Source: a virus (lineage: Duplodnaviria; Heunggongvirae; Uroviricota; Caudoviricetes). From it: DNA of 42,056 nucleotides. The translations under genes and the position numbers were made by a program. Shown one piece after another: positions 1 to 41,756 of this stretch. Location of the stretch: IMG/VR virus record IMGVR_UViG_2917413769_000001, positions 1-42,056 of that record; one strand, given 5' to 3'. Below the pieces are notes generated by a model. It was given only the letters and a program-made list of their open reading frames with translations. It had not been told where the DNA came from and ran no database searches. Every line of letters begins with the position of its first letter. The first letter of the stretch is position 1.

Positions 1-393
1 ATTAGCAGAGCCCCCGGCTGTGCCCGATGTATAGAAACCACTTTGGACCTCTGCAACCTGGACGAAGCCATTTTCCGAGCCACGAGTGGCAAAGTTGGCT
101 ATCACATCTTTTAACGCCCATCCCTTCGCAACCGTGCCTTCCTGCCCACGAATAACCGTTAAATTATCACCACTCACCGCGGTCAAATGACAGATTTCGA
201 ATGCAGTTTCGCCAGAGTCTGTCAGCGTAATCTTTGCGTAATTTTTCAACGTAGTCGATTTGTTGCTGAAATCGGAAGTGAGCAGCGCCGCGAACATTGC
301 CCCTCCACCAGGTAGAACAGGGATGGTTGTCTGGCTTGATGTAATATCGGATGCCAGAGCAGAAACCACGTTATTACCAAATCCCAATATCAT
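1..393 (-). CDS. Tail fiber protein, N-terminal part (partial; gene runs off the window start)
   Basis: Minus-strand frame open from ATG at 393 to position 1 with no stop; Gly/Ser/Thr-rich N-terminus (MILGFGNNVV...); last gene of the baseplate module. Confidence 0.4.
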   Translation of the reverse strand, partial: MILGFGNNVVSALASDITSSQTTIPVLPGGGAMFAALLTSDFSNKSTTLKNYAKITLTDSGETAFEICHLTAVSGDNLTVIRGQEGTVAKGWALKDVIANFATRGSENGFVQVAEVQSGFYTSGTAGGSAN

Positions 394-420
394 TTTTTCA
401 CCATTCTTAGTGACAGGAAA

Positions 421-1044
421 TTAAACAGAGAAATCGACAGTGAAGCTGTAAATAAACGGCAGCTTTACGATCCCCTGCTCTATTGCCTCTTTCAGAAAAA
501 CCCCGACGCTGTCAGTTGAATCAGGAAGGATAATCACGAATACACCGTTGTTCGGAACGACAGAAATATCAAAGGTGTTAGTTACGGGAGGATCAATGCC
601 ATTCGGACCACAGAGAAAGCGTGCGATGCGCCTTTTCAACCAGTCCAGATTGAACTGAAAACCGTCGGCTTTATAAAAATTCCAGGTCAGGATCCGCTTG
701 AAGTAATCATCGACTACATAGGTCGTCGCGCCTGGCACGAAGTTTTTCATCCCGGCATAGGGGATCGTGTTGTAGTCAATGGTGTTATAAGCCCCCTTAG
801 CTATCGCTTCCTGAGATACCTGCAATAACGGACGTGTTTCCCCATAAATCCCGGCGACAACCCAATCGAGCAGCTTTCCGGATAATGCAGGAGAAGGCCA
901 GTAAGGCAGGCTCAACGAGTTGAAATCATCAAGATATTCCTGGGCCATTTCGTTGTAAGCATCGAAGAACGCCACGACATTCTCATCGTCCCTGAACTGT
1001 TTGAAGCAGTAAGCGGGGATTATTGTGTCAACTGGTGCTTCCAT
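421..1044 (-). CDS. Baseplate / tail-fiber-associated protein (gpI-like position)
   Basis: 207-aa ORF between J-like baseplate gene and tail fiber; assignment by gene order only. Confidence 0.3.
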   Translation of the reverse strand: MEAPVDTIIPAYCFKQFRDDENVVAFFDAYNEMAQEYLDDFNSLSLPYWPSPALSGKLLDWVVAGIYGETRPLLQVSQEAIAKGAYNTIDYNTIPYAGMKNFVPGATTYVVDDYFKRILTWNFYKADGFQFNLDWLKRRIARFLCGPNGIDPPVTNTFDISVVPNNGVFVIILPDSTDSVGVFLKEAIEQGIVKLPFIYSFTVDFSV

Positions 1045-2254
1045 ATTTCTCTACCTGAATCTGGGCGGTTGAAGTGGTGAAGTAGGAGTACGTATCGCCA
1101 TACACCAGCGAAGAACCCGTCTCAGGCGGAACAATGGTCCCGTTGATACCAACCTGAATATCGATCATCGATACCAACGATGGCGGGACGAGTCCCTGCA
1201 CAGACTCGAGGAAAATCTCCTGAATCTGGAGGATGTTGATTGGCTGCCCTACTGCAATGCCGTTGATATAGTCGACAACGTTCTGCTGCACTGCTTTGGA
1301 CATACCGGCCGGGTCGATATATTTCGTTGATGCCGTACTCCAGGTGATGAAGACCGAAGCAGCCTGAGATGTCGGTACGACAAACGGCAGCTGGTAGCTG
1401 TCGGGGTAAGAGTCAATCTGTACCGTCTTTTTCTCCACCTCTGCACCGGAGGGATTGCTGACATCATTCGTCAGTGTCGAAATGTCCGGAACTGCTTTAT
1501 AAATGGCGTAGGCCACCTCGTACGGGTCACCACCACCGACCACCGCCACCCATTTCCCGGCTGCTGGCTGTCGGAACGAAACCAGGTTTGCTTGTACCCC
1601 ATCGACCGCTTGTACCATCATGCGAAAGAAATCCGGTACGCCCTGTGCAGTCGACATGCCTGACTGCATAACCTGCGCCCGGTACGAAGCATAGGACTGC
1701 GCCTCCAGTCCCGGCAGGCCCGTGGTCAGGTTGGTGCAGGTAACGTTGTAGTCCTTCGGTACCGACGTGATTATTTGGGTAACGGTACCTTCAGGAACAG
1801 CCCAGGAGTTGGGAGAAATCGCCAGGCAATAGACTGGCTCGGTTTGACCGCTCGAAGGGATGACGGTATCGCGCACTACGGCATACTGATTGTTGCCATC
1901 GCTCACAGTGAATCCCTTCGGGATAGGGAAGCCCGGTAGACCAGAGAACACCACATACACCGATGTGTTTGTTCCCTCCCCTTGCTGCACGCCGTAGATA
2001 TTACCCAACTGCATCAGCAACGGGATATTCGCGCCGTATGGACTGCATGAATTGATGAGATCGACACGCGCCTGATCAATCAGAGCAATCCCCCCGGTTC
2101 CTGTGCCAGCCATATCGGCAATCAGTCCCGGCGGCAGGTTTGCGGTGTAGCCAGGTACCTTTGCAGCGACACGAGAAATTAAACTGGCTAAAATAGTTTT
2201 TGGCGGCGTGGGCTTTGCCCCCGCCTCGGTCATGATTATGGGCAGATCAGACAT
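1028..2254 (-). CDS. Baseplate protein (gpJ-like position)
   Basis: 408-aa ORF in V-W-J-I-fiber order typical of P2/Mu-like baseplates; no motif confirmed. Confidence 0.35.
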   Translation of the reverse strand: MSDLPIIMTEAGAKPTPPKTILASLISRVAAKVPGYTANLPPGLIADMAGTGTGGIALIDQARVDLINSCSPYGANIPLLMQLGNIYGVQQGEGTNTSVYVVFSGLPGFPIPKGFTVSDGNNQYAVVRDTVIPSSGQTEPVYCLAISPNSWAVPEGTVTQIITSVPKDYNVTCTNLTTGLPGLEAQSYASYRAQVMQSGMSTAQGVPDFFRMMVQAVDGVQANLVSFRQPAAGKWVAVVGGGDPYEVAYAIYKAVPDISTLTNDVSNPSGAEVEKKTVQIDSYPDSYQLPFVVPTSQAASVFITWSTASTKYIDPAGMSKAVQQNVVDYINGIAVGQPINILQIQEIFLESVQGLVPPSLVSMIDIQVGINGTIVPPETGSSLVYGDTYSYFTTSTAQIQVEKYGSTS

Positions 2255-2275
2255 ATTCTCCCCTAAGGATAATTT

Positions 2276-2779
2276 ATGAAGAAAAAATTACTGCTATTAA
2301 TAACAATGATCACATCAGGATGCGTACCATATGCATACCGGACAGATCTTTCTGATTGTCTAAGCATTGGTAATTACACAAACAAAATAACTAATGAAAA
2401 AATAATCAATGAATTAAATAGTACAGAGATCAATAAAATTCAGAAAATAACTCCTACAGGTAATGTAAAATTTGGCGATGGTGACTCAACTGAATGCCCA
2501 GTCACCGTCACTCATGAAAATGGAACATCTGAACAAGGATTTCTTATATCTAGAGGCCGATGGTCTCAGCAGAAAAAATTAGAGTACAAATTTCTTTCAA
2601 AATGGGATGCGCAACAACAAGTTGAAGAAAATAATGCAGCAAATAAAATACGTACTGAACAAATAGAATCACAGGCTAGAGCACGCGACACAGAATCAAA
2701 ACATGATTTTCAGTCTGCATCTATAACTGCATATCCATTCAAGGCAGAGATCTATTGCTATAACAAAAAAAAATTTTAA
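2276..2779 (+). CDS. Putative lipoprotein (moron), function unknown
   Basis: Opposite strand to flanking tail genes; visibly AT-rich; RBS AAGGA 6 nt before ATG; N-terminus MKKKLLLLITMITSGC resembles a lipoprotein signal with lipobox Cys. Confidence 0.6.
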   Translation: MKKKLLLLITMITSGCVPYAYRTDLSDCLSIGNYTNKITNEKIINELNSTEINKIQKITPTGNVKFGDGDSTECPVTVTHENGTSEQGFLISRGRWSQQKKLEYKFLSKWDAQQQVEENNAANKIRTEQIESQARARDTESKHDFQSASITAYPFKAEIYCYNKKKF

Positions 2780-2780
2780 C

Positions 2781-3020
2781 ATGTACAAACCAGTGGACTG
2801 TGGCATTAGCGCTTCTGGAAAATTAGGACCAACAAATCTTTATGATAAACAAGCGCTAACTTTTGATATTCTTCTTCCATCCTCATTCACTCTTAAGGCG
2901 TCCATGGCTGAGCCAGACTTGTTTATGGGCATTAAGGTTGATATTCGTTCTCGTAAAACAAATGAAGTAGTGAACACCCGCACAGGCAGTTACACTGATA
3001 CTGTTTTTATTAGCAACTGA
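2781..3020 (+). CDS. Hypothetical protein (second moron gene, translationally coupled)
   Basis: ATG 2 nt after the stop of the lipoprotein gene; same strand and AT-rich composition; no signal peptide. Confidence 0.4.
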   Translation: MYKPVDCGISASGKLGPTNLYDKQALTFDILLPSSFTLKASMAEPDLFMGIKVDIRSRKTNEVVNTRTGSYTDTVFISN

Positions 3021-3041
3021 CTATCCCGATCATACATCGAA

Positions 3042-3389
3042 TCAAACAGCCACCGTTTTTTGATAGCTAATTCCATTTTTAAAAATAACGTCAATTTTAT
3101 AGGTGGGGTTAGCAGCCCCATCTACTTTTGAGATTGCCAGTGATGCGAAGTACCCGGCGAACTGCTGCTGTACCATGTTGACGTAAAAGTCCGGGTAAAC
3201 CTGCTGAACTATCGATTGCTGCGCCGGAATGCCGTACTGGGCATAAAACGGCGATTCACCCAAGCTAAGCTTCAGCGTCTGAATCAGTGTGGTCAGCCAG
3301 CCGTATGAAAAATCCCCATTAGAATCAGGCTCGACCAGTACCCACGTTTTTTTTCCGTTCTCGTCAGTGACGCGGCCCCAAGTTCTCAT
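3042..3389 (-). CDS. Baseplate protein (gpW/gp25-like position)
   Basis: 115-aa ORF, size and position consistent with gp25/W wedge proteins; by gene order. Confidence 0.3.
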   Translation of the reverse strand: MRTWGRVTDENGKKTWVLVEPDSNGDFSYGWLTTLIQTLKLSLGESPFYAQYGIPAQQSIVQQVYPDFYVNMVQQQFAGYFASLAISKVDGAANPTYKIDVIFKNGISYQKTVAV

Positions 3390-3400
3390 GAAAATCTCCT

Positions 3401-4120
3401 CTATGCGCCTGGTGTTGGAGGTTCGGAAGGAATATCTGCACTACCTGGTTCGACACCTTTAACCAAGTGCGGGTGATCAATGAGGCTGACCTCACCGGCC
3501 ACTACATCCTTCGTCACGTTCATTGGACCAATAAACGTAGCCGTGGTACTGGTCATCTGGTCAGGATCCTGCACTATTGGTCCGTTAAGGTGCAGCGTTC
3601 CCCCGCCCAAGTAAATATCCTTGGCATTGAGGTAAATGGCGTCTGCTTTCTGCGTAATTGTTCCCGGTTCCACTGTTATTGAACTGACCCCGTCGGCCGT
3701 TTTCAAAATGGCGCCATCAGGACCATATAGCACTATTTTGTTCGGATCCTCCTTCGTCCAACCCACGTTGGATAAAGGTACAAAGAACAGCGGAACCAGT
3801 GATAGCGTTAACGACCTGCTGGCAATCCCGGTCCCCAAGCCTGATACCCCTCGCAGCGAGACATCAGCAGCCACGGTCACCCCTTTATCACCTTCCTGTA
3901 TCGGGTATCTGATGTATTCAAAAGTAGCGACAGGAAGGGTTGTCTGCGGGTACTGAGTGCCATCTGGAAGCATATCGAACTGCACTGTGACGATCTGCCC
4001 ATCAACCGCAACAACATGGCAGGGTAGAGATCGACCGGATATAGCAGTCCGGTCTTCATTTGCCGTATGGATCGCGTTATTCAGAGCCTTCAGGAAAGGA
4101 AAAGTTTGTCCATTGCTCAT
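3401..4120 (-). CDS. Baseplate spike/assembly protein (gpV-like position)
   Basis: 239-aa ORF upstream of W-like gene; by gene order. Confidence 0.3.
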   Translation of the reverse strand: MSNGQTFPFLKALNNAIHTANEDRTAISGRSLPCHVVAVDGQIVTVQFDMLPDGTQYPQTTLPVATFEYIRYPIQEGDKGVTVAADVSLRGVSGLGTGIASRSLTLSLVPLFFVPLSNVGWTKEDPNKIVLYGPDGAILKTADGVSSITVEPGTITQKADAIYLNAKDIYLGGGTLHLNGPIVQDPDQMTSTTATFIGPMNVTKDVVAGEVSLIDHPHLVKGVEPGSADIPSEPPTPGA

Positions 4121-5121
4121 GTTGTATTCTTCGCCAGCGCGACGGCCTCGTAGATTGTCACCCAGGAATTGGTGTTATCAGGGTTAAGGAAATCGCCGAC
4201 ATGGCGCACTGATGTTACCAGGAATTTTCCCGAGAAATTCACTCGGTTACGCAGCGATGAGTACGAGCGTTCACTATTAACCGAAAGGAGCGCCCCTGGT
4301 CCCGAGATAATATTTTCGGGCAAAGCAACCTTCATTCCACAGAACAAATCTGAGCGAAGGGGACACTTGAACGAAACACTGAACATACCAATCCAGTTCG
4401 GCTGGTCAATCAATTCCTGGGGGAGAATTTGAACTGTGCCATCGTCGGTAGTGTTATTGTCGAAAACGCGAATGACCCGGTTTTGCATCACCATCTGCAC
4501 TCCGGTGTAATCAGCACGACTTACATAGGAGAAAGAGTGACTTCGAATTACGGCAGCAAGTTGGGTTAGTCGCGGATAAACACCAGTAGCGGGCTCTGCA
4601 AGCACCAACTGGTCATTGATGGAAATGTCAATTTTGAATCCGGGATAAGCAACTGCCAGCGCGCGGTTGAGCACATCACTTAACTTCTCCCCTTTTTTTC
4701 CATCGAGTGTAATGCTGTTCTCTTGCCCTTTGTCATTCAGCAACGGGCTGGGATTCACCACGAAATTAAGAGACTGATTAGTCCCCTGCCACACCGGAAA
4801 AGGGTTATAAATCTGCCCGCTGAGAATAAGTCCACCCTGATTGGGGTTTGCAAGTGGAAGTCCTGCAGAAAAGCCGGCGATCAAATCGACCCGGCATCCT
4901 GCCAGTTGCGTGCTCTCCCGCAGCATTGAAATTGGCACGCCAAACAGGGAAATTCTGGTACCGCTGGAAACAACGTCATACCCGGTGATTAGTGCGTCGA
5001 ACTGGATTTGTAGCGCTGACCCTGGAGACAGAGAACTGTCAAACGGGCCAATCGGATTACCTGTGTCATCCAGCGGCGTTTTGCCATTTTTGTCAGTTAG
5101 TTCGAGTCTGTAGTATTTCAT
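4117..5121 (-). CDS. Tail protein (gpD-like position)
   Basis: 334-aa ORF between tape-measure region and baseplate genes. Confidence 0.3.
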   Translation of the reverse strand: MKYYRLELTDKNGKTPLDDTGNPIGPFDSSLSPGSALQIQFDALITGYDVVSSGTRISLFGVPISMLRESTQLAGCRVDLIAGFSAGLPLANPNQGGLILSGQIYNPFPVWQGTNQSLNFVVNPSPLLNDKGQENSITLDGKKGEKLSDVLNRALAVAYPGFKIDISINDQLVLAEPATGVYPRLTQLAAVIRSHSFSYVSRADYTGVQMVMQNRVIRVFDNNTTDDGTVQILPQELIDQPNWIGMFSVSFKCPLRSDLFCGMKVALPENIISGPGALLSVNSERSYSSLRNRVNFSGKFLVTSVRHVGDFLNPDNTNSWVTIYEAVALAKNTT

Positions 5122-5387
5122 CAGGTCGCCTCGAACTGGTTCGAACTGACCCGGAAGACAAGCGACCCCGGCGCGTAAGGGAGCGCCAAGTTGATGTCAT
5201 AATCGTCAGGAGAGCCAACAAGCGGCACATACCAAACAACCTGCCCTTGCCCATCGGTGAGCCTGAGGTAATAGCGGTTTGCATACTGGTTGTATGGGAC
5301 GGTACCGAACAGTTTCGCGCCGCCGACAGTGGCCTGAAACGAGAAAGGAGTCTTCCCGTCAGGATTGAAGGGTATAGTGGTTGTCAT
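5121..5387 (-). CDS. Tail protein, small
   Basis: 88-aa ORF, start/stop coupled to neighbours in the tail operon. Confidence 0.3.
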   Translation of the reverse strand: MTTTIPFNPDGKTPFSFQATVGGAKLFGTVPYNQYANRYYLRLTDGQGQVVWYVPLVGSPDDYDINLALPYAPGSLVFRVSSNQFEAT

Positions 5388-5395
5388 GTTGAGAC

Positions 5396-6064
5396 CTAAA
5401 ATTTTGGAAAAGCAGGAATCAGATCGCCATTACTCCACCAGGATCCTGTATCCGCTGAAAAAGTTGTCGGCATTCCCGATTCGAATTTACTCATCAGGCC
5501 GCCGAGTGCCGCCTCCACCTGTGATATTGCGAGAAGCGGCTGTTCAAACTCCATTTCCCAGGTGTGTTGAACCTGCTTATTCTGCTCAGAAAATCCCGAC
5601 ACATCGACAAACGAGCGCATCAGGCAGCCGGTGTAGATATACGAGGGCGTCATCACGACGTAATAGCCGCCGCTCTGATTGTGCTTATCCAGCGCCAGTT
5701 TCAGTGCGGCGAAGGTGATCCCCTTGGTTGCGTACCCTCCATCCTTCGTGGATGCAGGTCGTAGCATCTGCATTCGCACCTGGTTCGGACGGTTGATTAC
5801 CGAGTTAGCCGCCGTCGCCATGTTGTAAAAATTGAGAGTTCCGATTTCTTGCCTGATTAGTGAAGTTCCGGCCATTGGAGTGAAGTGGGCTGTTGGTCCG
5901 GAGAGTTCACCGTGAAGCAGACCATCAACAATACTCACACCTTCGGTCAGAACCGCGATCGGCATCATGCCCCCGGGTATTTCGGAGGCAATGCCCTCAA
6001 CTAGAATTATCGGCGAAACCTCGAAGGCCAGACGGAACGCCTGACCAAAGTAATTCAATGCCAT
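5396..6064 (-). CDS. Tail structural protein
   Basis: 222-aa ORF immediately downstream of the tape-measure-like gene. Confidence 0.3.
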   Translation of the reverse strand: MALNYFGQAFRLAFEVSPIILVEGIASEIPGGMMPIAVLTEGVSIVDGLLHGELSGPTAHFTPMAGTSLIRQEIGTLNFYNMATAANSVINRPNQVRMQMLRPASTKDGGYATKGITFAALKLALDKHNQSGGYYVVMTPSYIYTGCLMRSFVDVSGFSEQNKQVQHTWEMEFEQPLLAISQVEAALGGLMSKFESGMPTTFSADTGSWWSNGDLIPAFPKF

Positions 6065-6067
6065 GCG

Positions 6068-7927
6068 TTACCTCGGCGTTATGTAGATCCCCTGAACCTG
6101 AGCCTGAATATCGGAGCCTGGCTTTTCGTTTACCTGGAGGTTGATTGTGGCCCGATCGCTAACTCCACCTTTACCGAGAGTGCTACTTGCGTCACTCAAT
6201 TGCTGGAGAATGCCAGGATGCTGTTCAACTGCGCCCTGAACTTTAGGCAGAATATTCAGTAAATAATCGACAGTCTCTTTTTTGAGATTGAGATTGCCGT
6301 CCTTCGAAACAGCAATATTGCCGCCGTTGTACTGAGCCAACGCTTTTGCAACATCCCCACCATATCTGTTCAGATTGTCGCGGAAATATTTGCCAGCAGC
6401 ATCGACTGACTTCTCTGGATCAAAGCGTTCCATTGTCGACAGCCCATAACCAGATGCTGTCGGTGTGGTGAACTGGAAGAGTCCGGCTGCCCCTGACTTT
6501 TTGTTATAAGCCAATGGATTACCGCTGGACTCTTTCATTGCTACAGCGCCAAGCAGCCCGGCTGGTAGTTGGTTATCCTGAGCAACCTGATCAAATCTCG
6601 TTTTTAAAGAAGCCAGTTGGCTATCTGGCATGTGATAACCAAGGCCATTCTTATCAAAAATGTTTTTATCGGACCAAATTCCGGTGTACTTGCCCGTGGC
6701 TTGATTTGAGCCTGGCAGTTTCCCGTTCAGGTATTCATCCCCATACATTTTAAGGATTGGGTTTACCTGATCCGGCCCTTTCCCTGTCCCAGACAGATCC
6801 ACTCCAGGAACATTACCGGCTATCCACTTAATGGCCTGGCCCAGCGCTGTAACGATGGCCTTTACACAATCTGCGAAGGTTTTCAGATCGGTCTGGAAGC
6901 TATCTCCACCCAGCCAGTCGCCCAGTTTGTGCAGGCCGCTCGCCAGCGTGTCGAATACAGCTTTCCCGTTTTTACCGTTGAGGAATTTTTCGATGCTGGC
7001 GGTCAGGTTGTCGGAGATTTTACCGATGGGGGCGCTCAGCTTCGCCAGTGCTTTCAGAAAAGAGTTTCCGATCCGGTCGGCGTTGTATTCAAACTTTGCA
7101 GTTAAATCCTGGTATTTCTGCTGAGTGCCGCTACCCATATCCCGGTCAAGAACCTGTGACTGCTCAGTGAACTGCTTACTCAGCTGCGGCAGGCGGTCGC
7201 TGTTCGCAAGAATTTGGTTAGCGGTCGCCACATCGATCACACCATCGAGGCCATAGCCTTGTAGCACGGATTGCGAGACACCAGTACCTTTGTACTGCTG
7301 TAAGAGACGGGAAACGCCCTCCAGCAGTTTCGGCATATTTTCGGCGGCACCAGCCTGCGGATTGATGCCCAACGACATAATCCCGGCGTACTGCGGGTTA
7401 TTTGGAGCATTCTGTACCGCAGCCAGCGCCTGCATGATGTTCCCGGTATTACTGATTCGGGTGCCGTAGACGTTGTTAGCGGCCTGCATCTGCCCAGAAG
7501 TGACATTCAAACCCTGCGCGGTGCGGTACTGATCGGCAACGTGGCGTGCCATTAATCCATAGCCAAATGGACCGGCCACACTCAGCGCCGCAATTTTAGT
7601 CCCCCAACTGATGGTGGTGGCAAACAGCCCCTTCAGCGTACTGGTGGTGGCCCCGAGAGTTTTATTGATGAGCGTGAAGGTTTTCAGTGTGCCCTGGGCT
7701 TCCTTGTTCAGCCCCTTCATGAACTTGTCGAAACCGGACGCATCCGGCTTTTTCCCTGTCTGCTCTTCAGGTTTTTTGGCTGGTGGCCGAGCCGTGGGAG
7801 CCGGGACCGGAAAACCACCCGGCCCGACGGTGATGGCTGCCTTAAATTTGTCGGCGATCTCGTGGAGCGCCTTGATTTTTTCGTCGTCGAAATCCAGAGT
7901 CAAAACTGGAAGCTGATTCCCTGCCAT
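6068..7927 (-). CDS. Tail tape-measure-like protein with C-terminal lytic transglycosylase (SLT) domain
   Basis: 619 aa, at tape-measure position; motif AVAMKESSGNPLAYNKKSGAAGLFQF matches the SLT catalytic Glu-Ser and G-L-x-Q signature. Confidence 0.6.
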   Translation of the reverse strand: MAGNQLPVLTLDFDDEKIKALHEIADKFKAAITVGPGGFPVPAPTARPPAKKPEEQTGKKPDASGFDKFMKGLNKEAQGTLKTFTLINKTLGATTSTLKGLFATTISWGTKIAALSVAGPFGYGLMARHVADQYRTAQGLNVTSGQMQAANNVYGTRISNTGNIMQALAAVQNAPNNPQYAGIMSLGINPQAGAAENMPKLLEGVSRLLQQYKGTGVSQSVLQGYGLDGVIDVATANQILANSDRLPQLSKQFTEQSQVLDRDMGSGTQQKYQDLTAKFEYNADRIGNSFLKALAKLSAPIGKISDNLTASIEKFLNGKNGKAVFDTLASGLHKLGDWLGGDSFQTDLKTFADCVKAIVTALGQAIKWIAGNVPGVDLSGTGKGPDQVNPILKMYGDEYLNGKLPGSNQATGKYTGIWSDKNIFDKNGLGYHMPDSQLASLKTRFDQVAQDNQLPAGLLGAVAMKESSGNPLAYNKKSGAAGLFQFTTPTASGYGLSTMERFDPEKSVDAAGKYFRDNLNRYGGDVAKALAQYNGGNIAVSKDGNLNLKKETVDYLLNILPKVQGAVEQHPGILQQLSDASSTLGKGGVSDRATINLQVNEKPGSDIQAQVQGIYITPR

Positions 7928-8622
7928 CAGAACAACCCCCGCGGCGGTTTGAGTTTCAGCAGCTCACGTAACTGAGCCGCTGTTTTCAGGTTTATTCCGC
8001 TATCTGTCCAGAGTTCGGGGAATCCGACTCCGGCGGAGAAGTCGAGAATTTCGGAGATGACGTGTTCACCGTCTCGCCAGAACTGGCGGCAGGCTTCGAC
8101 ATCTGCAATGAAGCAGTCCAGTCCATAAGACTCAAGGATGTGGTTTGACTGCCCCAGACTCCATTGACCTGGTCCATAACTTCCTTCGCCTGATTTGGTT
8201 TGTTCACTGACGAGACGCATGTAAAAAAAAACGAGTTCGCCGATCACATCATCCATATCGACAATTTCACGCTCCAGCGCCACATCCAGCGGTTTGGTAT
8301 CCCAGCCCTTCCCCTCTACCGGATAGACCAGACTTGAGAGGCGAATGATTTCGTTGACCAGAGTGTTGTGAACTCCGTTTGAACCATCCCAGGCATCATT
8401 ACCTTTTGCGATTTTTTCGAGGAAGAGATACGCCACCCGAGGTCCGGCAACAATCCCCAGCCCTTCAGTGAAAATTGCCGAGAAAGTTTTAGCCAAAATC
8501 AGGAAGTGCTCGCGGTAAACCTCTTTCGAGATTGGCGCAGAATGAACGTAAGCCGTACCCAGCTCAGTTTCGACAGGAACGATCAGGTTGAGGTTTCGAG
8601 AAATTTTCATCAGAGATCCCAC
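7927..8622 (-). CDS. Tail assembly chaperone (by position)
   Basis: 231-aa ORF between tube-like and tape-measure-like genes. Confidence 0.3.
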   Translation of the reverse strand: MGSLMKISRNLNLIVPVETELGTAYVHSAPISKEVYREHFLILAKTFSAIFTEGLGIVAGPRVAYLFLEKIAKGNDAWDGSNGVHNTLVNEIIRLSSLVYPVEGKGWDTKPLDVALEREIVDMDDVIGELVFFYMRLVSEQTKSGEGSYGPGQWSLGQSNHILESYGLDCFIADVEACRQFWRDGEHVISEILDFSAGVGFPELWTDSGINLKTAAQLRELLKLKPPRGLF

Positions 8623-9050
8623 ATTTCCGAGTTGATGTAATAGGTTCCAGTGATAGTAAGGGCAACGCCCGGCTCACCGCCTGCAAAGCTCATGTCAGCC
8701 ACGCTCGTGATGGCAGTATTCAAAAGCTGAAAATCGCCAAAAACTTTGCTGTCCGAATACACCTGAGCATCGCCAATTGCAGAGTTCGCCTCCCACTGCG
8801 TTTTGTACTGCGAACCAAGGGACTGGCTGCGCAGCAGATGAACCTTAGCCTGCATAATCATGTACGGCTGAGGTGACTGAACGGCTCCGGTCATGGCCGG
8901 GAGGAAATCGGTCATATTTCCCTGGAAGGTCAACTCAATACCCTCCTTCGCAAGATATGAAGCCGAAACGTTGAGTTCGGCATGGTCGGTAAATTTGATA
9001 CTGGCACGTACGCGGTTAAGCGTGCCAACAGGAATCATTGGATTCGGCAC
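8610..9050 (-). CDS. Tail tube protein (by position and size)
   Basis: 146-aa ORF directly downstream of the sheath-sized gene. Confidence 0.35.
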   Translation of the reverse strand: MPNPMIPVGTLNRVRASIKFTDHAELNVSASYLAKEGIELTFQGNMTDFLPAMTGAVQSPQPYMIMQAKVHLLRSQSLGSQYKTQWEANSAIGDAQVYSDSKVFGDFQLLNTAITSVADMSFAGGEPGVALTITGTYYINSEMWDL

Positions 9051-9061
9051 GGTTCAACTCC

Positions 9062-10390
9062 TTAGGAAAGCTGCATTGTCACGTTGATGTTGAAAATGAT
9101 TGTTGTGAAGCCACGCATCGGCGTGTACGTTGCTGACAGCCCAGCATAGCGACCAATCTGGTAATCGTTGGGGTTGTCTTTAACGTATTGTTTGAACGGG
9201 ATGGCGTTCACCGTAACCGGGCCATTTACCAACCCATAGGCAATGCCGGTGTTAAACACGCTTTGCGCACGCTGCTGGAGTCGGTCGATACCGTCCTGGT
9301 CGTAGTAGAGCGGGTTAATCGGGTTGTTGCTGCCATTGATCACTTCGTTCGCCAGGGCCATGTCGACGTTAATCTGAACCCAGTCAACGCTATACCAGTA
9401 CGTCGCATCATTGCCGTCGCTAGTCACTCCTTTCACCAGGATGGTGTTAGAAATGCCGCCCTCGGCCCCAGTGTCGACGTAGTTGATGTTCTGCGCATCC
9501 ATCGTGCTAAGAATGCTATTTTTCGCCTTGTTGGCGTTGACCGCTTGCAGATAGCGGAATGCCATCGGCGGGACTTTGTTCACTTCGGATGGAGACGCGG
9601 AAACGAAATTCCACATATCGGCAACCGCCGCGTTGGTCGTCGGGTAGGTATCGTCAGCCATTGCGACAACCGACTTAATGCTGGCATACGGCGATGTGTA
9701 GTTGCTGTCCTTCGGCGTATCCTCCAACACGTAGAAATACTGTTTCGCGTCACTGGCGGTGTAGAGTTTGGCCAGCGTGATGAAGTCTGTGTCACCCTTC
9801 CACGTTTCCGGTACCAAGTAAGCGTAGAAACGTTTAAGCGGCTCCTGCATGTACAGCTTCAATGCAGCGACTTCGTTCTTTGTGACATCCTTCTGGTACC
9901 CAAGTTCGAGGAGATAAGTCCCCACTTTTTGACCCTGAGCGAAAAACGTATCAACCGCAGTAACGAGCAGTTCACTGTTAACAAGCGTGAACTGGCCCAG
10001 CGTCGTTGGTGAGCCGTCTAGCGTTGAGGTGCTGTCTGTCCAGGTCAGTGAACCCGCCAGTCCCAGCGTCGCCGTGAACGTGCCGTTCCAGATAGTGGGA
10101 GAGCAGCCAACAATAGTGATTTCGATTTCACTGCCCGGATCGCGGTCGATTTTCACACTATCCGGCACCGTCAGAGTGAAGTCAGAACCGTAGGAAGAAT
10201 TTTCCGCAGTCAGTGACTCAATCGGAATGTTAACCAGATCGGTGATGTCCGAAGACTGAGTGAGAAGAACAGGCCTGCCCGGCTCTTGTGTAGTAGTACC
10301 AAACGACAAAACAGCCGACATCTGCTGAAGATTCGAGGGCATGGCCCCGATCGTCTGCGAGACGTTAACGGTGACAATTTCGTAACCCAT
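9062..10390 (-). CDS. Tail sheath protein (by position and size)
   Basis: 442-aa ORF preceding tube-like gene; implies contractile tail. Confidence 0.35.
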   Translation of the reverse strand: MGYEIVTVNVSQTIGAMPSNLQQMSAVLSFGTTTQEPGRPVLLTQSSDITDLVNIPIESLTAENSSYGSDFTLTVPDSVKIDRDPGSEIEITIVGCSPTIWNGTFTATLGLAGSLTWTDSTSTLDGSPTTLGQFTLVNSELLVTAVDTFFAQGQKVGTYLLELGYQKDVTKNEVAALKLYMQEPLKRFYAYLVPETWKGDTDFITLAKLYTASDAKQYFYVLEDTPKDSNYTSPYASIKSVVAMADDTYPTTNAAVADMWNFVSASPSEVNKVPPMAFRYLQAVNANKAKNSILSTMDAQNINYVDTGAEGGISNTILVKGVTSDGNDATYWYSVDWVQINVDMALANEVINGSNNPINPLYYDQDGIDRLQQRAQSVFNTGIAYGLVNGPVTVNAIPFKQYVKDNPNDYQIGRYAGLSATYTPMRGFTTIIFNINVTMQLS

Positions 10391-20618: not shown

Positions 20619-21236
20619 TTAAATCCGGCAAAAGGTATAGCTACCAATACCATCTCGACCAAGCTCGCTTTCGCGGGTGTTGTGTTCCACCAGCTTAAAC
20701 CCGTTAGCTGCAAACCATTTTAAGAGCCCATCATGAGTCCAGTACCAGATATGCTCATCACGGCGGAAATGACGGGACCGCAGTACATGCTCTGCGCACT
20801 CAAAGATGGGTACTGAAACGAATACCCATTTTTCCGCCCGCGCGATGGCAACCTCTGGCCGATCGATATGTTCCAGGGAATCCCAGAACGTCAGCGCCGG
20901 ATATCGGTCATGGTATAAATGCGCCCACTGTCCTCGCGCTTTCAGCCACTCAACGCCCGCAGGATTTACATCAAATCCCTTGGTATCCGGACGTGCTTCA
21001 ACAAATTGCCCGGCACCGATGCCAACATCCAGAACAACACCGCTGTAATGTCGCGAAACTAACTGGACCCGTGCCGCAGTCAACTCTCTACCTAGTTCGG
21101 TATCAGCCAGTTGCTGGTATCGTGAAAAATAATCTTCATCGTACGGTCGATGGGCCTTCGGCACCGGGTAACGACCAATACCCAATTCAGGCAGCCACGC
21201 CAGCCCATGTTTGATTTGCTCAGAGAAATACTTCAT
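20619..21236 (-). CDS. Class I SAM-dependent methyltransferase
   Basis: 205 aa; motif I VLDVGIGAGQF and downstream FWDSLEHI. Confidence 0.6.
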   Translation of the reverse strand: MKYFSEQIKHGLAWLPELGIGRYPVPKAHRPYDEDYFSRYQQLADTELGRELTAARVQLVSRHYSGVVLDVGIGAGQFVEARPDTKGFDVNPAGVEWLKARGQWAHLYHDRYPALTFWDSLEHIDRPEVAIARAEKWVFVSVPIFECAEHVLRSRHFRRDEHIWYWTHDGLLKWFAANGFKLVEHNTRESELGRDGIGSYTFCRI

Positions 21237-22140
21237 GCGCCCACTCGCTTACGTGATGCCTGATATACGTTATCGATAAAGGGCTGCACCCGTGAAGAAA
21301 GCCCACTGATTGTTTTGTCGCAAGCGTGTTTCATCTCCTGGCACCGGCAATAGTTATCCGGGTATACAAACAACGCGCGGGATAAATCCATACAACGGGG
21401 ATCGGTAACTTTAGAGTGGTGGTTATTGCCGCCATTGCCGCCCTGCAAGCAGATCATCGGTTTACCGTAAGCAAGCGCAGCGTGCATGACGACACATGCA
21501 CCCGTAAGCACTATGTCGGCCCTTTCCACCAGCGCCAGCATCTGCGTGATAGAAAGCTGGCCATCATGCAGCTTCCGGTGCGCGAAAGGTTCCAGATCCG
21601 GTATCCACTCCAGACCAGGCTCGTTATCTGCAATGCTGATAACATGAAAACCGCGTATTGCCAGTAACCGGGAAACTTCATCCACATATTTGTTCAGCGG
21701 CCCGCGGCTGGCATTGTGCCACTCGGTACGTTCTGTGGTGGGACGTATAACGGCTATTGGCTTACCATCGGTACCGGAATATCCGGCGGAGGGTAATGCG
21801 GTAAATCCATCGCTGCCGGCAGCGTACCAAATTGCTGCTGCATCGCGTCGAATATGCTCCCGGCCTGAAGATGGCCATTGCCGTAAAAAATGCGCTGACG
21901 GGGAATGCCTGGCGGTTCAGATTCAAATCTCACCGATGTGCTTTGCTCGTTCTTACGCTGCGTCCGCAATGGCGTATTGGCCTTCACGAAATGCAGGTTC
22001 GGGATCCCGGCGTAAATTTCCGGAAGTGGCGTTCTCAGCCATACCTCTTTTCCCTGTTTGACCAGCGCCTTAATGAAGCAGCGCTGGTTGATATTGTCAC
22101 CGATGCCGTGCATCCCGTCTAAGTACAGTTTTCCAGGCAT
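21233..22140 (-). pseudogene. GT9-family (heptosyltransferase-like) glycosyltransferase, interrupted by a frameshift
   Basis: N-terminal ORF (to 21754) has GIGDNINQRCFIKAL and AMQQQFGTLPAAMDLPHY; C-terminal frame, open from 21916, has PIAVIRPTTERTEWH and DIVLTGACVVMHAALAYGKPMICLQGG, both resembling WaaC-type motifs; the two frames overlap 21757-21916. Confidence 0.5.
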
Positions 22141-22678
22141 AAAGTGCCGCCTCAAGTGGTAAACGTTTAAAGCAAGTCAGCGCGGTCTCGCGTGACGCGT
22201 TGATAATCTCCACGCCCGGCAGAGCGCCAGCGAGAGAAGCAAAGTCGGTATGCCAGCGCCCTACTTCGCGCGGTACCGGATTATGCATCGTTGCCGGGTG
22301 GCGCCCATGCCAGTGTGCGCCGTTCACCAGGGTGCAGTCGTATCCGAGAAGAATCACCCTCTCTGCGCCGAGGTGGGCGGCGAGTTGAATGGCACGCTTC
22401 CCGGAGTTGAACGGCCCATTTTCTGATGGGGTGAAAAGCTTCACGCCGAACCGGGAATGAGCCCGTTTGCTCTGAGTCCATAGTTCGGCGCTGGTTTCCA
22501 GCGAATCGTAGTAATGGTCCCACCAGGTGAAATCGGCGGCGAAGATGTGCTGACAGTCTGGTACGGCCCTCCAGCTCGAATTAACTGCAATGACCGGGTA
22601 ACCGGAGCCGGAGGCCTGTGCGCAGTCGTTCGCCGTCAGCGACGGGCCGCTGGCGATGCAGATAAAGGTTTGGGTCAT
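22097..22678 (-). CDS. GT42/DUF115-like Rossmann-fold protein (sialyltransferase-like motifs)
   Basis: 193 aa; N-terminal ICIASGPSL and later SGKRAIQLAAHLGAERVILLGYDC resemble GT42 (Cst-II-type) IIAGNGPSL and SG...A..LG...I.L.G.D motifs, recalled from memory. Confidence 0.35.
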   Translation of the reverse strand: MTQTFICIASGPSLTANDCAQASGSGYPVIAVNSSWRAVPDCQHIFAADFTWWDHYYDSLETSAELWTQSKRAHSRFGVKLFTPSENGPFNSGKRAIQLAAHLGAERVILLGYDCTLVNGAHWHGRHPATMHNPVPREVGRWHTDFASLAGALPGVEIINASRETALTCFKRLPLEAALYAWKTVLRRDARHR

Positions 22679-23200: not shown

Positions 23201-23716
23201 TCAGCCTCTTTTGCGAATTTTCCCGCCATTATTTGCAAATTCACCGTGAGCGGCTTCTCGGAATTCACGCACAGCCTTCTCAGCATCACCTATATCAGTG
23301 AAGCAACCAAGGTGACGAGCATTCCCCTTTATTTTGCATTTCGCGTGCCATTTCTTGTCCCCTTTATGCCAGCAAACACCTTTTATTCCTGAGGTATTAT
23401 TGCGCGACAGCCTTGTGTTTCGCATATTTTCCACTGGAGAGGCGTTACGAAGATTACAAATCCGATTATCATTCTTCACGCCATTGATATGGTCGACCTG
23501 CTCAGACGGCCATATTCCGTTGGTGTAAAACAAAGCCAACCGATGCGCTAAATAAGCCAAGGAATTAATCCTGATCTGGACATATCCATTAGTATCTGGC
23601 GAGCCCGCAATACAACCCGCATGAACACCACCGCGAGATTCAAGCCAATAAAAAACCCCGGTATCGGAGTTATATTTCAACAAGCGTTTAAGCTGTTGTT
23701 GATCAATTACGGCCAT
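23201..23716 (-). CDS. HNH endonuclease with AP2 DNA-binding domain
   Basis: HNH_3-type motif VDHINGVKNDNRICNLRNA; AP2-like GVCWHKGDKKWHAKCKIKGNARHLGCF. Confidence 0.8.
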   Translation of the reverse strand: MAVIDQQQLKRLLKYNSDTGVFYWLESRGGVHAGCIAGSPDTNGYVQIRINSLAYLAHRLALFYTNGIWPSEQVDHINGVKNDNRICNLRNASPVENMRNTRLSRNNTSGIKGVCWHKGDKKWHAKCKIKGNARHLGCFTDIGDAEKAVREFREAAHGEFANNGGKIRKRG

Positions 23717-24236
23717 TGGTTACTCTCCTGTATGTGTTTTCACAGGTTTTTCCTGCCGTGTAAGCTTCATCAGCGAATTTTGCCAACTGTTGATTGCGAT
23801 CGACAGATTTTGAGAGCATGTCGGCAAGCACTCTTGTGGTCTGGGCTTTTGCCGCGCCTGCTGCTGCAATTGCGGAAATGCGGCCGGTTTCACTTCCTGC
23901 GAGCTGCCTGCGTAGCGTGGCGAGTTGTTGCTGCAACCCATCACCAGCACGCTGAGCAGCGTCAGCATCAGCCTGTACTTTCGCCAGTTCCATATCTGCA
24001 CGTTTCCGCTCCTCGTCTGCCGCCTGCTGACGTCGCCGTTCTTTGGCTCGCTCGGCAACCTCTCGGTGTATAGTTGCGGTTGAGTCAGCCAGATCCCGCT
24101 GTAGCCATTGCTGCTTCCAGACTGAATCCGCCGACTCATATCCCGCGTCGTATGCTCGCCATAACAAAAAAGCCACCAGCAAAGTGATCGCCAGCGGCTT
24201 CCAGTATTTCCCCAGGTACTCGAACAGCGCAGTCAT
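23703..24236 (-). CDS. Rz-like i-spanin
   Basis: 177 aa; N-terminal [14 protein letters not shown] then charged coiled coil; directly downstream of endolysin. Confidence 0.6.
23720..23968 (-). CDS. Rz1-like o-spanin (embedded in Rz in another frame)
   Basis: Internal start [13 protein letters not shown] with lipobox Cys; Pro-rich; wholly inside the Rz gene. Confidence 0.5.
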   Translation of the reverse strand: MLTLLSVLVMGCSNNSPRYAGSSQEVKPAAFPQLQQQARQKPRPQECLPTCSQNLSIAINSWQNSLMKLTRQEKPVKTHTGE

Positions 24237-24844
24237 ACAAGCACCGATTTCGCCTTGTCATAGCGGGTCTGCCGATCATCGAGGCCGTTAGTGCCACCGT
24301 TGATGATTTTCGTAACAGCTTTGACATCCCCGGAGTGCTTCAGACAGCCTTTTGCGGTATAGAACCACGCCGCCGAACGGGCTGCATATTCATCCTGCTC
24401 CAAAAGCTGAGGAACCAGTAACAAATCGGCACCCAGACCAGCACCACAATCCCGGTAATTGTCGTGACCGGTAATCTGAATCAGTCCACGGCCGCGATAA
24501 TTCCATCCATCGTTTTGTCCAATATTCCCCATGCGATTTGCATAGACGATATTGGCAATGCCTTTTTGATCCGCCGGGTGATTAGCAGTACGTCCGTACT
24601 TCTGCGCGGTTTCGGTAGTGAAATATTTCCCGAATGTCGCTTTCAGGCCATCAGCAGAATAATTCAGGTTTTCAACAATACGTGTGAAACCTCCAGACTC
24701 ATGCCCCACCTGAGCGATAAACATCGCCTGATCCAGCGGTGAGATAATGCCGAATTCTTTCATCTCTGCATCGATATGCGGAAACCAGCGCGCAGCCAGT
24801 CCGGCGCTGATACCAGCCGCCATTTGAAATTGTTGTTGGTTCAT
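24233..24844 (-). CDS. Endolysin, glycoside hydrolase family 19-like
   Basis: 203 aa; motifs QVGHESGGF and [15 protein letters not shown] typical of GH19 phage lysozymes. Confidence 0.8.
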
Positions 24845-25868: not shown

Positions 25869-25945
25869 TGGTCCGCCACCGGGGGCTCGAACCCCGTACA
25901 ATCAAATTAAAAGGCTGATGCTCTGTCCTGGTGAGCTAGTGGCGG
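25869..25945 (-). tRNA. tRNA-like element (possible phage tRNA or pseudo-tRNA; anticodon UUU if functional)
   Basis: Reverse complement folds as a cloverleaf: 7-bp acceptor CCGCCAC/GTGGCGG, D-stem GCTC/GAGC with GG loop, T-arm CGGGG-TTCGAGC-CCCCG, encoded CCA; anticodon stem weak (3 WC + 1 GU + 1 mismatch). Confidence 0.35.
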
Positions 25946-34899: not shown

Positions 34900-35036
34900 C
34901 GTAAAAACCCGCCGAAGCGGGCCTGTACGTCCGGTGCCACCAACCAAAGTACACCGGAAATTACACAAAACCAATGAACACCCAATGGGCGCTACCAATG
35001 GCCCGGGGATTATACATCCAAAATTGAGGATCTCAT

Positions 35037-40299: not shown

Positions 40300-40624
40300 A
40301 ATGGCAATTCCAGCGAAAAAGGCGGCTGAAATTCTGGATGTTTCAACCAGGACTATTTACCAGTTGATTAACTCAGGGCAGTTGGCCGGTAAGAAGATAG
40401 GCAATAAGTATCGAACAACCGCATCAGCATGCCTTGCATATTTGTATTCCCCGCAAGAAACTAAACAGGCGAACGCGGGTGATCATAAAGGAGATAATTT
40501 ATGTCAATCACCCTCAGAGGCGGTGTGTGGCACTGTCATTTCTTTACGCCGTCAGGAAAAAGAGTTAGACGCTCTCTTGGTACGGGGGACAAAAAGCAAG
40601 CGCAGGAACTGCACGACAAACTGA
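40286..40624 (+). CDS. xis: Excisionase (Xis/AlpA-type HTH)
   Basis: [31 protein letters not shown]; directly upstream of and overlapping integrase. Confidence 0.55.
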
Positions 40625-41664
40625 AGGCAGAGGCGTGGCGGGTAGATAAGATAGGGGATCTTCCGTCCAGATCTTTTGAAGAATGTTGCATCCGCTGGAT
40701 ACGGGAAAAAGAGCACAAGCGTGCTCTTGATGATGACAAAACCAAGATAGAGTTTTTTCTGCAACATTTTTCGGGCAGGGACATTTCGTCTATTACGGCG
40801 AATGATGTATACGGCGTCGTCGAAGGGATGACCAACAGAAAACATTATCAGAACTGGGTTAGCAGCAGGGACGCTGCAATCAGGAAAGGAAAGGAACCAC
40901 CGGAATACAAGCCAAAGCTGGTTAGCCAGGAGACAAGGGCACAGCATCTGTCATTTATGCGGGGTCTTTTCCGTATAGCTGAGAAGGACTGGCTCTGGAT
41001 AAAGGATGCACCTGTTATCAAGGTGAGAAAGCCAGGGAGCAAGCGTATCCGCTGGCTCACTAAAGATGAGGCCTCACGGCTAATCGAATGCGTTTCTGAT
41101 GATTTAAAGCCGGTCGTTACTTTTGCGCTGGCGACAGGACTTCGGCGCTCTAACATTATCAACCTGGAATGGCAGCAGGTCGATATGCAAAGGAAAATTG
41201 CCTGGGTAAATCCAGAGGACGCTAAAGCGGGAAAGGCTATCGGCGTAGCCCTGAATGATACCGCATGCAAAGTGCTTCGCGATCAGATTGGAAAACATTC
41301 CAGGTGGGTTTTTGTCTACACGAAAGCAAAACATCGACCTGATGGAACAATCACCCCCGCAGTCAGGAAAATGAGTCTCGGTAACCATAAAGGATGGGAT
41401 GCGGGTCTGAAGCGAGCCGGAATCGAAAATTTTCGCTTCCACGACCTGCGCCATACCTGGGCAAGCTGGCTGGTTCAGTCCGGTGTCCCGTTATCCATTT
41501 TACAGGAAATGGGTGGATGGGAATCGATTGAAATGGTCCAGAGATATGCGCACCTGGCCCCTAATCATTTAACGGAGCACGCACGGAAAATTGATCTGAT
41601 TTTTGGAAGCAGCGACACAAATACGACACAGGAAATAAGTCAGGCAGGATTGAGGATAGCGTAA
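40501..41664 (+). CDS. int: Tyrosine integrase, P22-like family
   Basis: 387 aa; catalytic-region motifs [14 protein letters not shown] and VQRYAHL; close resemblance to P22 Int as recalled; ends 16 nt from a tRNA gene. Confidence 0.9.
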
Positions 41665-41679
41665 TTCATTGATTTATAA

Positions 41680-41756
41680 TGGCGCGCCCTGCAGGATTCG
41701 AACCTGCGGCCCACGACTTAGAAGGTCGTTGCTCTATCCAACTGAGCTAAGGGCGC
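41680..41756 (-). tRNA. argU: tRNA-Arg (anticodon UCU), argU-type
   Basis: Reverse complement GCGCCCTTAGCTCAGTTGGATAGAGCAACGACCTTCTAAGTCGTGGGCCGCAGGTTCGAATCCTGCAGGGCGCGCCA: 7-bp acceptor, D-loop GG, anticodon loop CUUCUAA, T-loop TTCGAAT, encoded CCA. Confidence 0.9.

Follow-up and report, generated by a model that had tools for sequence, protein, structure and literature searches.

A lipoprotein gene in the baseplate module of a prophage of Escherichia sp. E1130, probably split into two reading frames by a homopolymer miscall

Results

Gene content of the locus

The DNA analysed here (the window, 42,056 nucleotides, virus record IMGVR_UViG_2917413769_000001) represents nearly the entire prophage of Escherichia sp. 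E1130, a Rac-SA53-like phage with a contractile tail. Among sequenced phages, Escherichia phage Rac-SA53 and Actinobacillus phage vB_Apl-pPE4 (pPE4) come closest, at about 69% identity in the gpJ-like protein. Our subject is the region at positions 2276-3020, where, as written, two open reading frames (ORFs) lie on the plus strand, 2276-2779 (167 amino acids (aa), ORF1) and 2781-3020 (79 aa, ORF2). An earlier note on this DNA, made from the sequence alone, had described them as a pair of coupled genes for a putative lipoprotein and a partner protein. The comparisons reported below indicate that the region is a single gene for a predicted lipoprotein precursor of 247 aa, inserted as foreign cargo among the baseplate genes.

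Both ORFs are bracketed by genes on the minus strand. On one side is a gpJ-like baseplate wedge gene (1028-2254, 408 aa), recognised by Pfam Baseplate_J (E 7.4e-10) and PHROG 6 'baseplate wedge subunit' (E 3.6e-37), and on the other a 115-aa gene in the gpW position (3042-3389), which matched PHROG 7986 (unknown function, E 4e-57). The label gpW-like for the 115-aa gene is based on synteny only, in the order V-like, 115 aa, J-like and I-like. The G+C fraction of 2276-3020 was 0.356, as compared to a window mean of 0.507 (standard deviation 0.037, z = -4.15), the lowest value among 827 sliding 745-bp stretches, with local values dropping to 0.32-0.38 across both ORFs. A Shine-Dalgarno sequence, AAGGA, was read 6 nucleotides (nt) 5' of the ATG at 2276, and together with its spacer occupies 2263-2275 on the plus strand. 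The gap between the divergent start codons is 21 nt and carries AAGGA for the plus strand and GGAG for the gpJ-like gene on the other strand; a start-to-start spacing of 20-21 nt was also found in the Erwinia prophage (L001), a metagenome-derived contig (L006), an Enterobacter prophage (L007), Rac-SA53 and Escherichia coli W. The ORF positions, the G+C value and the AAGGA sequence uphold the earlier description of an AT-rich insert, on the opposite strand within the baseplate module and with its own ribosome-binding site.

One reading frame and a run of adenines

Of 5.8 billion sequences, only one matched the 167-aa protein. It comes from Erwinia sp. OLTSP20 (P0001), is 247 aa long and 98% identical, and its sequence consists of ORF1, an Asn and ORF2. 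The alignment of the window with the Erwinia DNA contained a single indel, a run of nine adenines (A9) at 2765-2773 of the window against a run of eight (A8) in Erwinia. With A8 the frame runs on without a stop (...YCYNKKNFNMYKP...), and with the extra base it meets a TAA stop at 2777-2779, followed by an apparent restart at 2781. The split proteins are annotated in Escherichia sp. E1130 as TGC25819.1 and TGC25820.1, and a second E1130 record, TLI75898.1 (P0004), is 247 aa long and identical to the joined window ORFs (ORF1, N and ORF2).

The loci of all assemblies were collected via the neighbouring 115-aa protein. One E1130 assembly (L012, GCA_004745435.1) was 100% identical to positions 1-9389 of the window. 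Compared with it over 8,578 bp, a second assembly of the same strain (L013, GCA_005781065.1) showed 0 substitutions and 2 single-base gaps, both of them A8-to-A9 runs, at 2765-2773 and 8223-8231. The Logan assembly of SRR8835199 (L014) was identical to L013 and hence has A8. The Erwinia prophage has A8 at both run sites, and the lipoprotein site is also A8 in an IMG/VR contig (L005) and in Erwinia sp. OLFS4 (L011). An intact 247-aa ORF with A8 was thus present in the second E1130 assembly, the read assembly, two Erwinia genomes and the IMG/VR contig.

On these comparisons, 2276-3020 is one gene, and its appearance as 167 aa plus 79 aa is the product of one extra A in an A8 run. The extra A is very probably a homopolymer miscall of this assembly, because the two +1 differences both fall in A8 runs and are accompanied by no substitution. 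A real slippage from A8 to A9 in the sequenced culture would instead have produced a pseudogene, or the 'off' state of a phase-variable gene, with only a 167-aa lipoprotein that lacks the C-terminal domain. A8/A9 tracts slip readily, two assemblies of one strain disagree at exactly 2765-2773, and the A9 frame stops two codons on, which gives a clean truncation. The call of an artefact was also made at the level of assemblies, which leaves formal room for a slippage variant in the culture and counts against the miscall. However, the other sole difference in 8.6 kb is another A8-to-A9 change without substitutions, the pattern of a systematic miscall, and the read-based assembly has A8. Judging from the assemblies, we consider slippage most unlikely.

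The length of the run varies within the family, being A8 in the close relatives but A5, A7 and A5 in L006, L007 and L010, respectively, so there is no conserved switch, and a conserved frameshift or phase switch is unlikely. A phase-variable gene or a programmed frameshift at 2765-2773 was accordingly rejected, with A8 everywhere but this assembly and A5-A7 in distant members.

Two genuine, translationally coupled genes are extremely improbable: the stop (2777-2779) and the ATG at 2781 are separated by 1 nt in a coupling-like arrangement, but no Shine-Dalgarno sequence was found ahead of 2781, every other copy has A8 and a single 247-aa ORF, all remote relatives likewise have a single ORF, and the split point falls inside a conserved predicted domain, between the invariant C161 and C175. 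The 79-aa partner proposed earlier is on this evidence the C-terminal domain of the same protein, severed by a one-base homopolymer difference. The ratio of nonsynonymous to synonymous substitution rates (dN/dS) against a 60%-identical relative was 0.18 for the N-terminal part and 0.09 for the C-terminal part, values that indicate purifying selection on both halves of the gene.

The second A9 run (8223-8231) lies in a minus-strand gene at about 7992-8610 (ORF as written 7927-8622). On the coding strand it reads GTT TTT TTT, which is a canonical T_TTT_TTT -1 slippery heptamer in the correct phase. The gene concerned encodes 205 aa and is located between a 142-aa gene and the tape measure; its tract is kept in the Enterobacter prophage L007, and the -1 product is 227 aa, ending in TGATG on the tape-measure start codon. 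The heptamer is probably the site of a programmed frameshift of a tail-assembly chaperone (gpG/gpGT analogue), as judged from its sequence and position, and the extra base makes the chaperone region read as one fused ORF in the window.

The lipoprotein and its family

The predicted type II signal peptide, MKKKLLLLITMITSG, is followed by the putatively lipidated Cys16 (2276-2323, plus strand) with Val at +2. This N-terminus satisfies the PROSITE PS51257-type lipobox rule, in which a positively charged n-region and a hydrophobic h-region are followed by a lipobox ending in Cys within the first 15-35 residues, and the prediction of cleavage by signal peptidase II agrees with the earlier view of a putative lipoprotein.

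HMMER was run exhaustively against 1.84 billion cluster representatives and returned only 8 relatives, with E from 7e-92 to 1e-8, all of them 242-260 aa long and aligned over their full length. G15 and C16 were invariant in 10/10 family members. The residue at +2 of the lipobox was V, A or T in all members and never D. Under the '+2 rule', Asp at this position is an inner-membrane retention signal, and lipoproteins with other residues are transported to the outer membrane by Lol. Because Asp is absent at +2, sorting to the outer membrane by Lol is predicted, and we infer that the protein is a Lol-sorted outer-membrane lipoprotein. C28 and C74 were jointly present in 8 sequences and jointly replaced in the other 2, and C161 and C175 were invariant. 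The paired, covarying cysteines suggest disulfides and, through these, an extracytoplasmic location; each domain is probably pinned by one disulfide. Invariant residues of the C-terminal domain were Y153, P154, C161, N163, C175, G184, P185 and N187.

The family was otherwise rare in the collections searched. A search of IMG/VR and JGI metagenomes for more members gave one near-identical contig and nothing more, and an exact-pattern scan of genome contigs gave only Erwinia sp. OLFS4. The region yielded no match to the lipoprotein gene in 5,426 E. coli genomes (megablast, blastn) and no family relative in 50,697 phage records (megablast, tblastn). At E <= 1, Pfam had no family for the window ORFs or P0001; on 9 family members it gave scattered weak and unrelated matches in single members (best E 0.062). 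Nothing significant for the family was obtained with PHROGs, NCBIfam, PADLOC or PDB sequence profiles. As the earlier note had stated, then, no recognisable motif emerged from the profile searches or from the Foldseek search described below, and a clear homology to a housekeeping or structural tail protein, which would have spoken against its proposal, was searched for and not found. The family is rare, unannotated, undescribed and without a structural match.

Predicted structure

AlphaFold2 was run on a 9-sequence alignment, and a single-sequence model was discarded as poor (predicted local distance difference test (pLDDT) 63.6). The model retained had a mean pLDDT of 85.4 and a predicted template modelling score of 0.56. 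Residues 1-21 were disordered, representing the signal peptide and a tether. They were followed by an alpha+beta domain of about residues 25-108 (2348-2599, plus strand) with a helix at 40-48 and strands at 55-108, which holds the covarying Cys28 and Cys74. A long charged helix of 39 residues, 109-147 (2600-2716), links the domains in the predicted secondary structure and is the most variable segment of the family alignment. The C-terminal domain, about residues 153-247 by model and family alignment (2732-3017), is beta-rich over 155-246 and holds the invariant Cys161 and Cys175; pLDDT block means were mostly 86-97. The model thus suggests a mature protein of about 232 aa, with two domains and the 39-residue helix. 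Foldseek found no match to the model at E <= 0.001 in PDB or BFVD.

The insertion slot and its cargo

In each of the five independent contexts, members of the lipoprotein family, the most distant at 25% identity, occupy the same slot, which has the 115-aa gene on one side and the J-like gene on the other. Slot members include E1130, Erwinia and the metagenome-derived contig L006; in two Enterobacter ludwigii prophages, the lipoprotein gene in the slot is followed by a Bro-N antirepressor gene. The 25%-identical member (L010) is on the same strand as the preceding 114-aa gene, and its contig stops before any J-like gene. In Yersinia phage vB_YenM_29.18 the slot is empty, and the homologue of the 115-aa gene overlaps the J-like gene.

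Other cargo was surveyed in four E. coli prophages together with Rac-SA53 and pPE4 (L002, L003, L015-L018). The slot of Rac-SA53 carries an antirepressor and two proteins with type I signal peptides, and that of pPE4 an antirepressor and one other gene. The 115-aa gene is present in 88 of the 5,426 complete E. coli genomes, and the four E. coli slots inspected contained antirepressors, a YafO toxin, a protein of 248 aa with a signal peptide (annotated by PGAP as 'lysozyme inhibitor LprI family') and further proteins with signal peptides. Over all six prophages surveyed, the antirepressors are of the antA/AntB or Bro-N type. Judged by signal peptides, most slot cargo in sister prophages goes to the envelope. 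Cargo genes on the opposite strand have start codons 14-21 nt away from that of the J-like gene. The slot proteins of Rac-SA53, pPE4 and E. coli (rac61, rac62, a 179-aa protein of E. coli W and the 248-aa LprI protein) share with the lipoprotein the slot and the presence of a signal peptide, but rac61, rac62 and the E. coli proteins have type I signal peptides in place of the lipobox. Candidate diverged homologues of the family, rac62 and the LprI-like protein, were rejected as unrelated in sequence (hhalign probability 0.2-0.3%).

By its composition, orientation and position, the lipoprotein gene is AT-rich foreign cargo, a moron, carried on the opposite strand in a variable slot. It is inserted between genes that are adjacent in related phages, its composition is deviant, and sister phages have other cargo at the same place. 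Morons of tail modules, such as lambda bor/lom and P22 sieA-mnt-arc-ant, are likewise AT-rich, independently oriented and placed between late genes, and the antirepressors in the sister slots resemble the combination of sieA with ant in the P22 region. The cargo itself is unrelated to Bor, Lom and SieA.

Comparisons of protein identity indicate that the lipoprotein diverges more quickly than most of the structural proteins encoded around it: it was 59% identical against 66-88% for the neighbours in L006, 36% against 40-80% in L007, and 25% against 37-69% in L010. Between the window and Erwinia (L001), identity was 97% for the lipoprotein, a 222-aa protein and the tape measure, 81% for the J-like protein and 62% for the I-like protein, and blastn similarity to L001 ended at window position 1211. 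These mosaic identities and the end of similarity at 1211 point to a recombination boundary inside or near the J-like gene.

The surrounding prophage

The prophage parts recognised include baseplate genes, tape measure, capsid, portal and terminase; sheath and tube genes are putative and were assigned by position only. A Pfam SLT domain was found in the tape-measure homologues of Erwinia and L006. The start of the window coincides, to within a base, with the end of contig PDIL01000010.1, and the tail-fibre gene that comes after the I-like gene is cut there (1-393, minus strand, incomplete). Because of this cut, the receptor-binding proteins cannot be read in the window. In the Erwinia prophage L001, a 287-aa Macro-domain protein (5988-6851), an unusual cargo for a fibre module, was observed between the tail-fibre gene (Collar domain) and the fibre-assembly gene.

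The lysis cassette comprises a GH19 endolysin (24233-24844) and a DUF2514 protein assigned by Pfam (23703-24236), which we take to have the i-spanin role. Between the small terminase and the lysis genes, at 20619-22678 and 23201-23716 on the minus strand, are several unusual ORFs, among them one with a methyltransferase domain, two with weak glycosyltransferase-9-like or MptE-like matches, and one HNH endonuclease. Also within the prophage, close to its lysis and regulatory region, is a tRNA-Lys (UUU) gene at 25869-25945 (minus strand). Just upstream of the gene for a RecE-like exonuclease of 960 aa (35037-37919), the Hfq-binding small RNA isrB (Rfam RF01386) was matched at 34902-34996 on the minus strand, with 41.7 bits against a gathering score of 35. 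The integrase gene (40501-41664) adjoins a tRNA-Arg (UCU) gene at 41680-41756 (minus strand), directly after it, which is probably the attachment site.

Discussion

We give a probability of about 60% to the overall explanation that the locus is a single gene, interrupted in this assembly by an artefact, and that it encodes a lipoprotein carried as a moron with a role at the envelope. The precursor would be exported by Sec, lipidated at Cys16 and cut by signal peptidase II, and Val at +2 would lead to handover by Lol to the outer membrane. The mature protein of ~232 aa would then consist of a short tether, the small alpha+beta domain, the 39-residue helix and the beta-rich domain.

Phage lipoproteins encoded beside tail genes are classic superinfection-exclusion factors. 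Those characterised in Gram-negative hosts come from siphophages, in which a tip protein binds a single outer-membrane protein, and another exclusion factor, T4 Sp (Spackle), acts on the tail lysozyme. Llp, Cor and Rtp45 are lipoproteins of about 6-8 kDa that have a type II signal peptide and contain an internal disulfide; they are encoded beside tail or receptor-binding genes, and at the periplasmic face of the outer membrane they inactivate the receptor of their own phage (PMC9586334, PMC12685063). For Cor proteins, a mode of action like that of Llp is assumed (PMC9586334), and Rtp45 does the equivalent on LptD (PMC12685063). Ltp, from the Streptococcus thermophilus prophage TP-J34, is reported to be a multidomain prophage lipoprotein that blocks DNA injection via the tape measure of the incoming tail and not via the receptor (Bebeacua et al. 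2013, cited in PMC10883804).

The lipoprotein of the window shares with Llp, the Cor family (phi80, T1, N15) and Rtp45 the type II signal, a predicted disulfide and the neighbourhood of tail genes. By analogy with these systems, it may protect the lysogen at the envelope against incoming phage, a proposal that we put forward tentatively and at somewhat below even odds. The same odds cover, jointly with the anti-phage role, an expression from the prophage that would be independent of the late operon; this is suggested by the late transcript, which must cross the gene antisense to reach J. One way of acting would be to bind to an outer-membrane receptor on its periplasmic side and change it, as do Llp, Cor and Rtp45. 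Another would be to interfere with the penetrating tail, as Ltp does at the tape measure and T4 Sp at the tail lysozyme. An Ltp-like action on the tape measure would fit the strict linkage of the family to one SLT-bearing tail module, but Ltp is from a Gram-positive host and has no sequence or fold match to the lipoprotein. Given this strict linkage and the variable fibre genes, we lean slightly towards tail interference over receptor masking, while the linkage to one tail module may equally reflect vertical inheritance at a fixed site.

Carried further, this line of thought would make the family a new class of large, two-domain outer-membrane lipoproteins that guard the lysogen against tails of the same module, not via receptor masking, a version that we regard as quite unlikely. 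Its possible targets would be the peptidoglycan-cleaving SLT domain of the tape measure or the baseplate spike in the periplasm.

Several observations weigh against a protective function of this kind or against independent expression. An exclusion function is suggested by analogy, and no homology to exclusion or defence families was found in Pfam, PHROGs, NCBIfam, PADLOC or PDB sequences. There was no sequence or fold relationship to Llp or Cor: 2 of 9 family members reached a non-significant E of 0.18 against phrog_1119 (Cor), and the window protein gave no match to it. The mature lipoprotein, with about 232 aa and two domains, is about four times larger than the single-domain Llp and Cor proteins (about 60-80 aa). 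The phage has a contractile tail with fibres, in contrast to the siphophage tip protein of the phages that carry Llp, Cor and Rtp45, and the fibre genes differ among the phages carrying the family. The promoter and terminator that define morons were not found above shuffle level: promoter-like sites numbered 2 against 3.6 expected from shuffles, none of them convincing, and no plus-strand terminator was found 3' of 3020. The promoter-like site at 2166-2194, with 9/12 matches, was no better than shuffled sequence, and a conserved promoter in the 5' end of the J-like gene was rejected, this site not being conserved in Rac-SA53 or pPE4.

The lipoprotein might instead be a lysogenic-conversion factor that serves the host, through serum or complement resistance, protection from lysozyme, or adhesion. 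Such host-fitness functions are exemplified by lambda Bor and plasmid TraT (serum and complement resistance) and by inhibitors of the LprI/MliC type, which act on host lysozyme. The Pfam families TraT and Lambda_Bor had no match among the window ORFs, P0001 or the 9 family members, and we regard a role of this kind as unlikely.

Outer-membrane spanins are typically short, around 60 residues. A lysis protein of this sort, an outer-membrane spanin subunit of Rz1 type, can scarcely be upheld: a spanin would likewise be a phage-encoded outer-membrane lipoprotein, and one family member reached E 0.15 against a PHROG 'Rz-like spanin' family, but a separate lysis cassette is present in the prophage about 21 kb off (23.7-24.8 kb), the lipoprotein gene is in the baseplate module, the protein of 232 aa with folded domains is four times larger, and the slot is empty or holds unrelated cargo in sister phages. 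Membership in the Llp/Cor, TraT, Bor and spanin groups was thus rejected after sequence, size and context had been compared.

The chief value of the analysis is corrective, in that an apparent two-gene operon becomes one gene broken by what is very probably a homopolymer miscall. The same assembly has what appears to be a second miscall, in the tail-chaperone gene, and the annotations TGC25819.1 and TGC25820.1 are to be treated cautiously.

A phage lipoprotein carried as a moron in a tail module is a familiar kind of element, and it is the protein family that is new. On present evidence, the gene ranks as an ordinary accessory gene. Its family, whose predicted structure is confident, is tied to one insertion slot, and the prophage lineage that bears this slot is the one counted above in the complete E. 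coli genomes (88/5,426). If the tail-acting view were true, the family would correspond, on the Gram-negative side, to Ltp or T4 Spackle, and the slot would be a hot spot dedicated to periplasmic cargo of anti-injection or anti-muralytic function. That would also account for the presence in E. coli slots of the 'LprI-family lysozyme inhibitor' and of other proteins with signal peptides. If the lipoprotein excludes phage by whatever route, its family would represent a structurally new envelope-level defence, and the slot would be worth mining for more.

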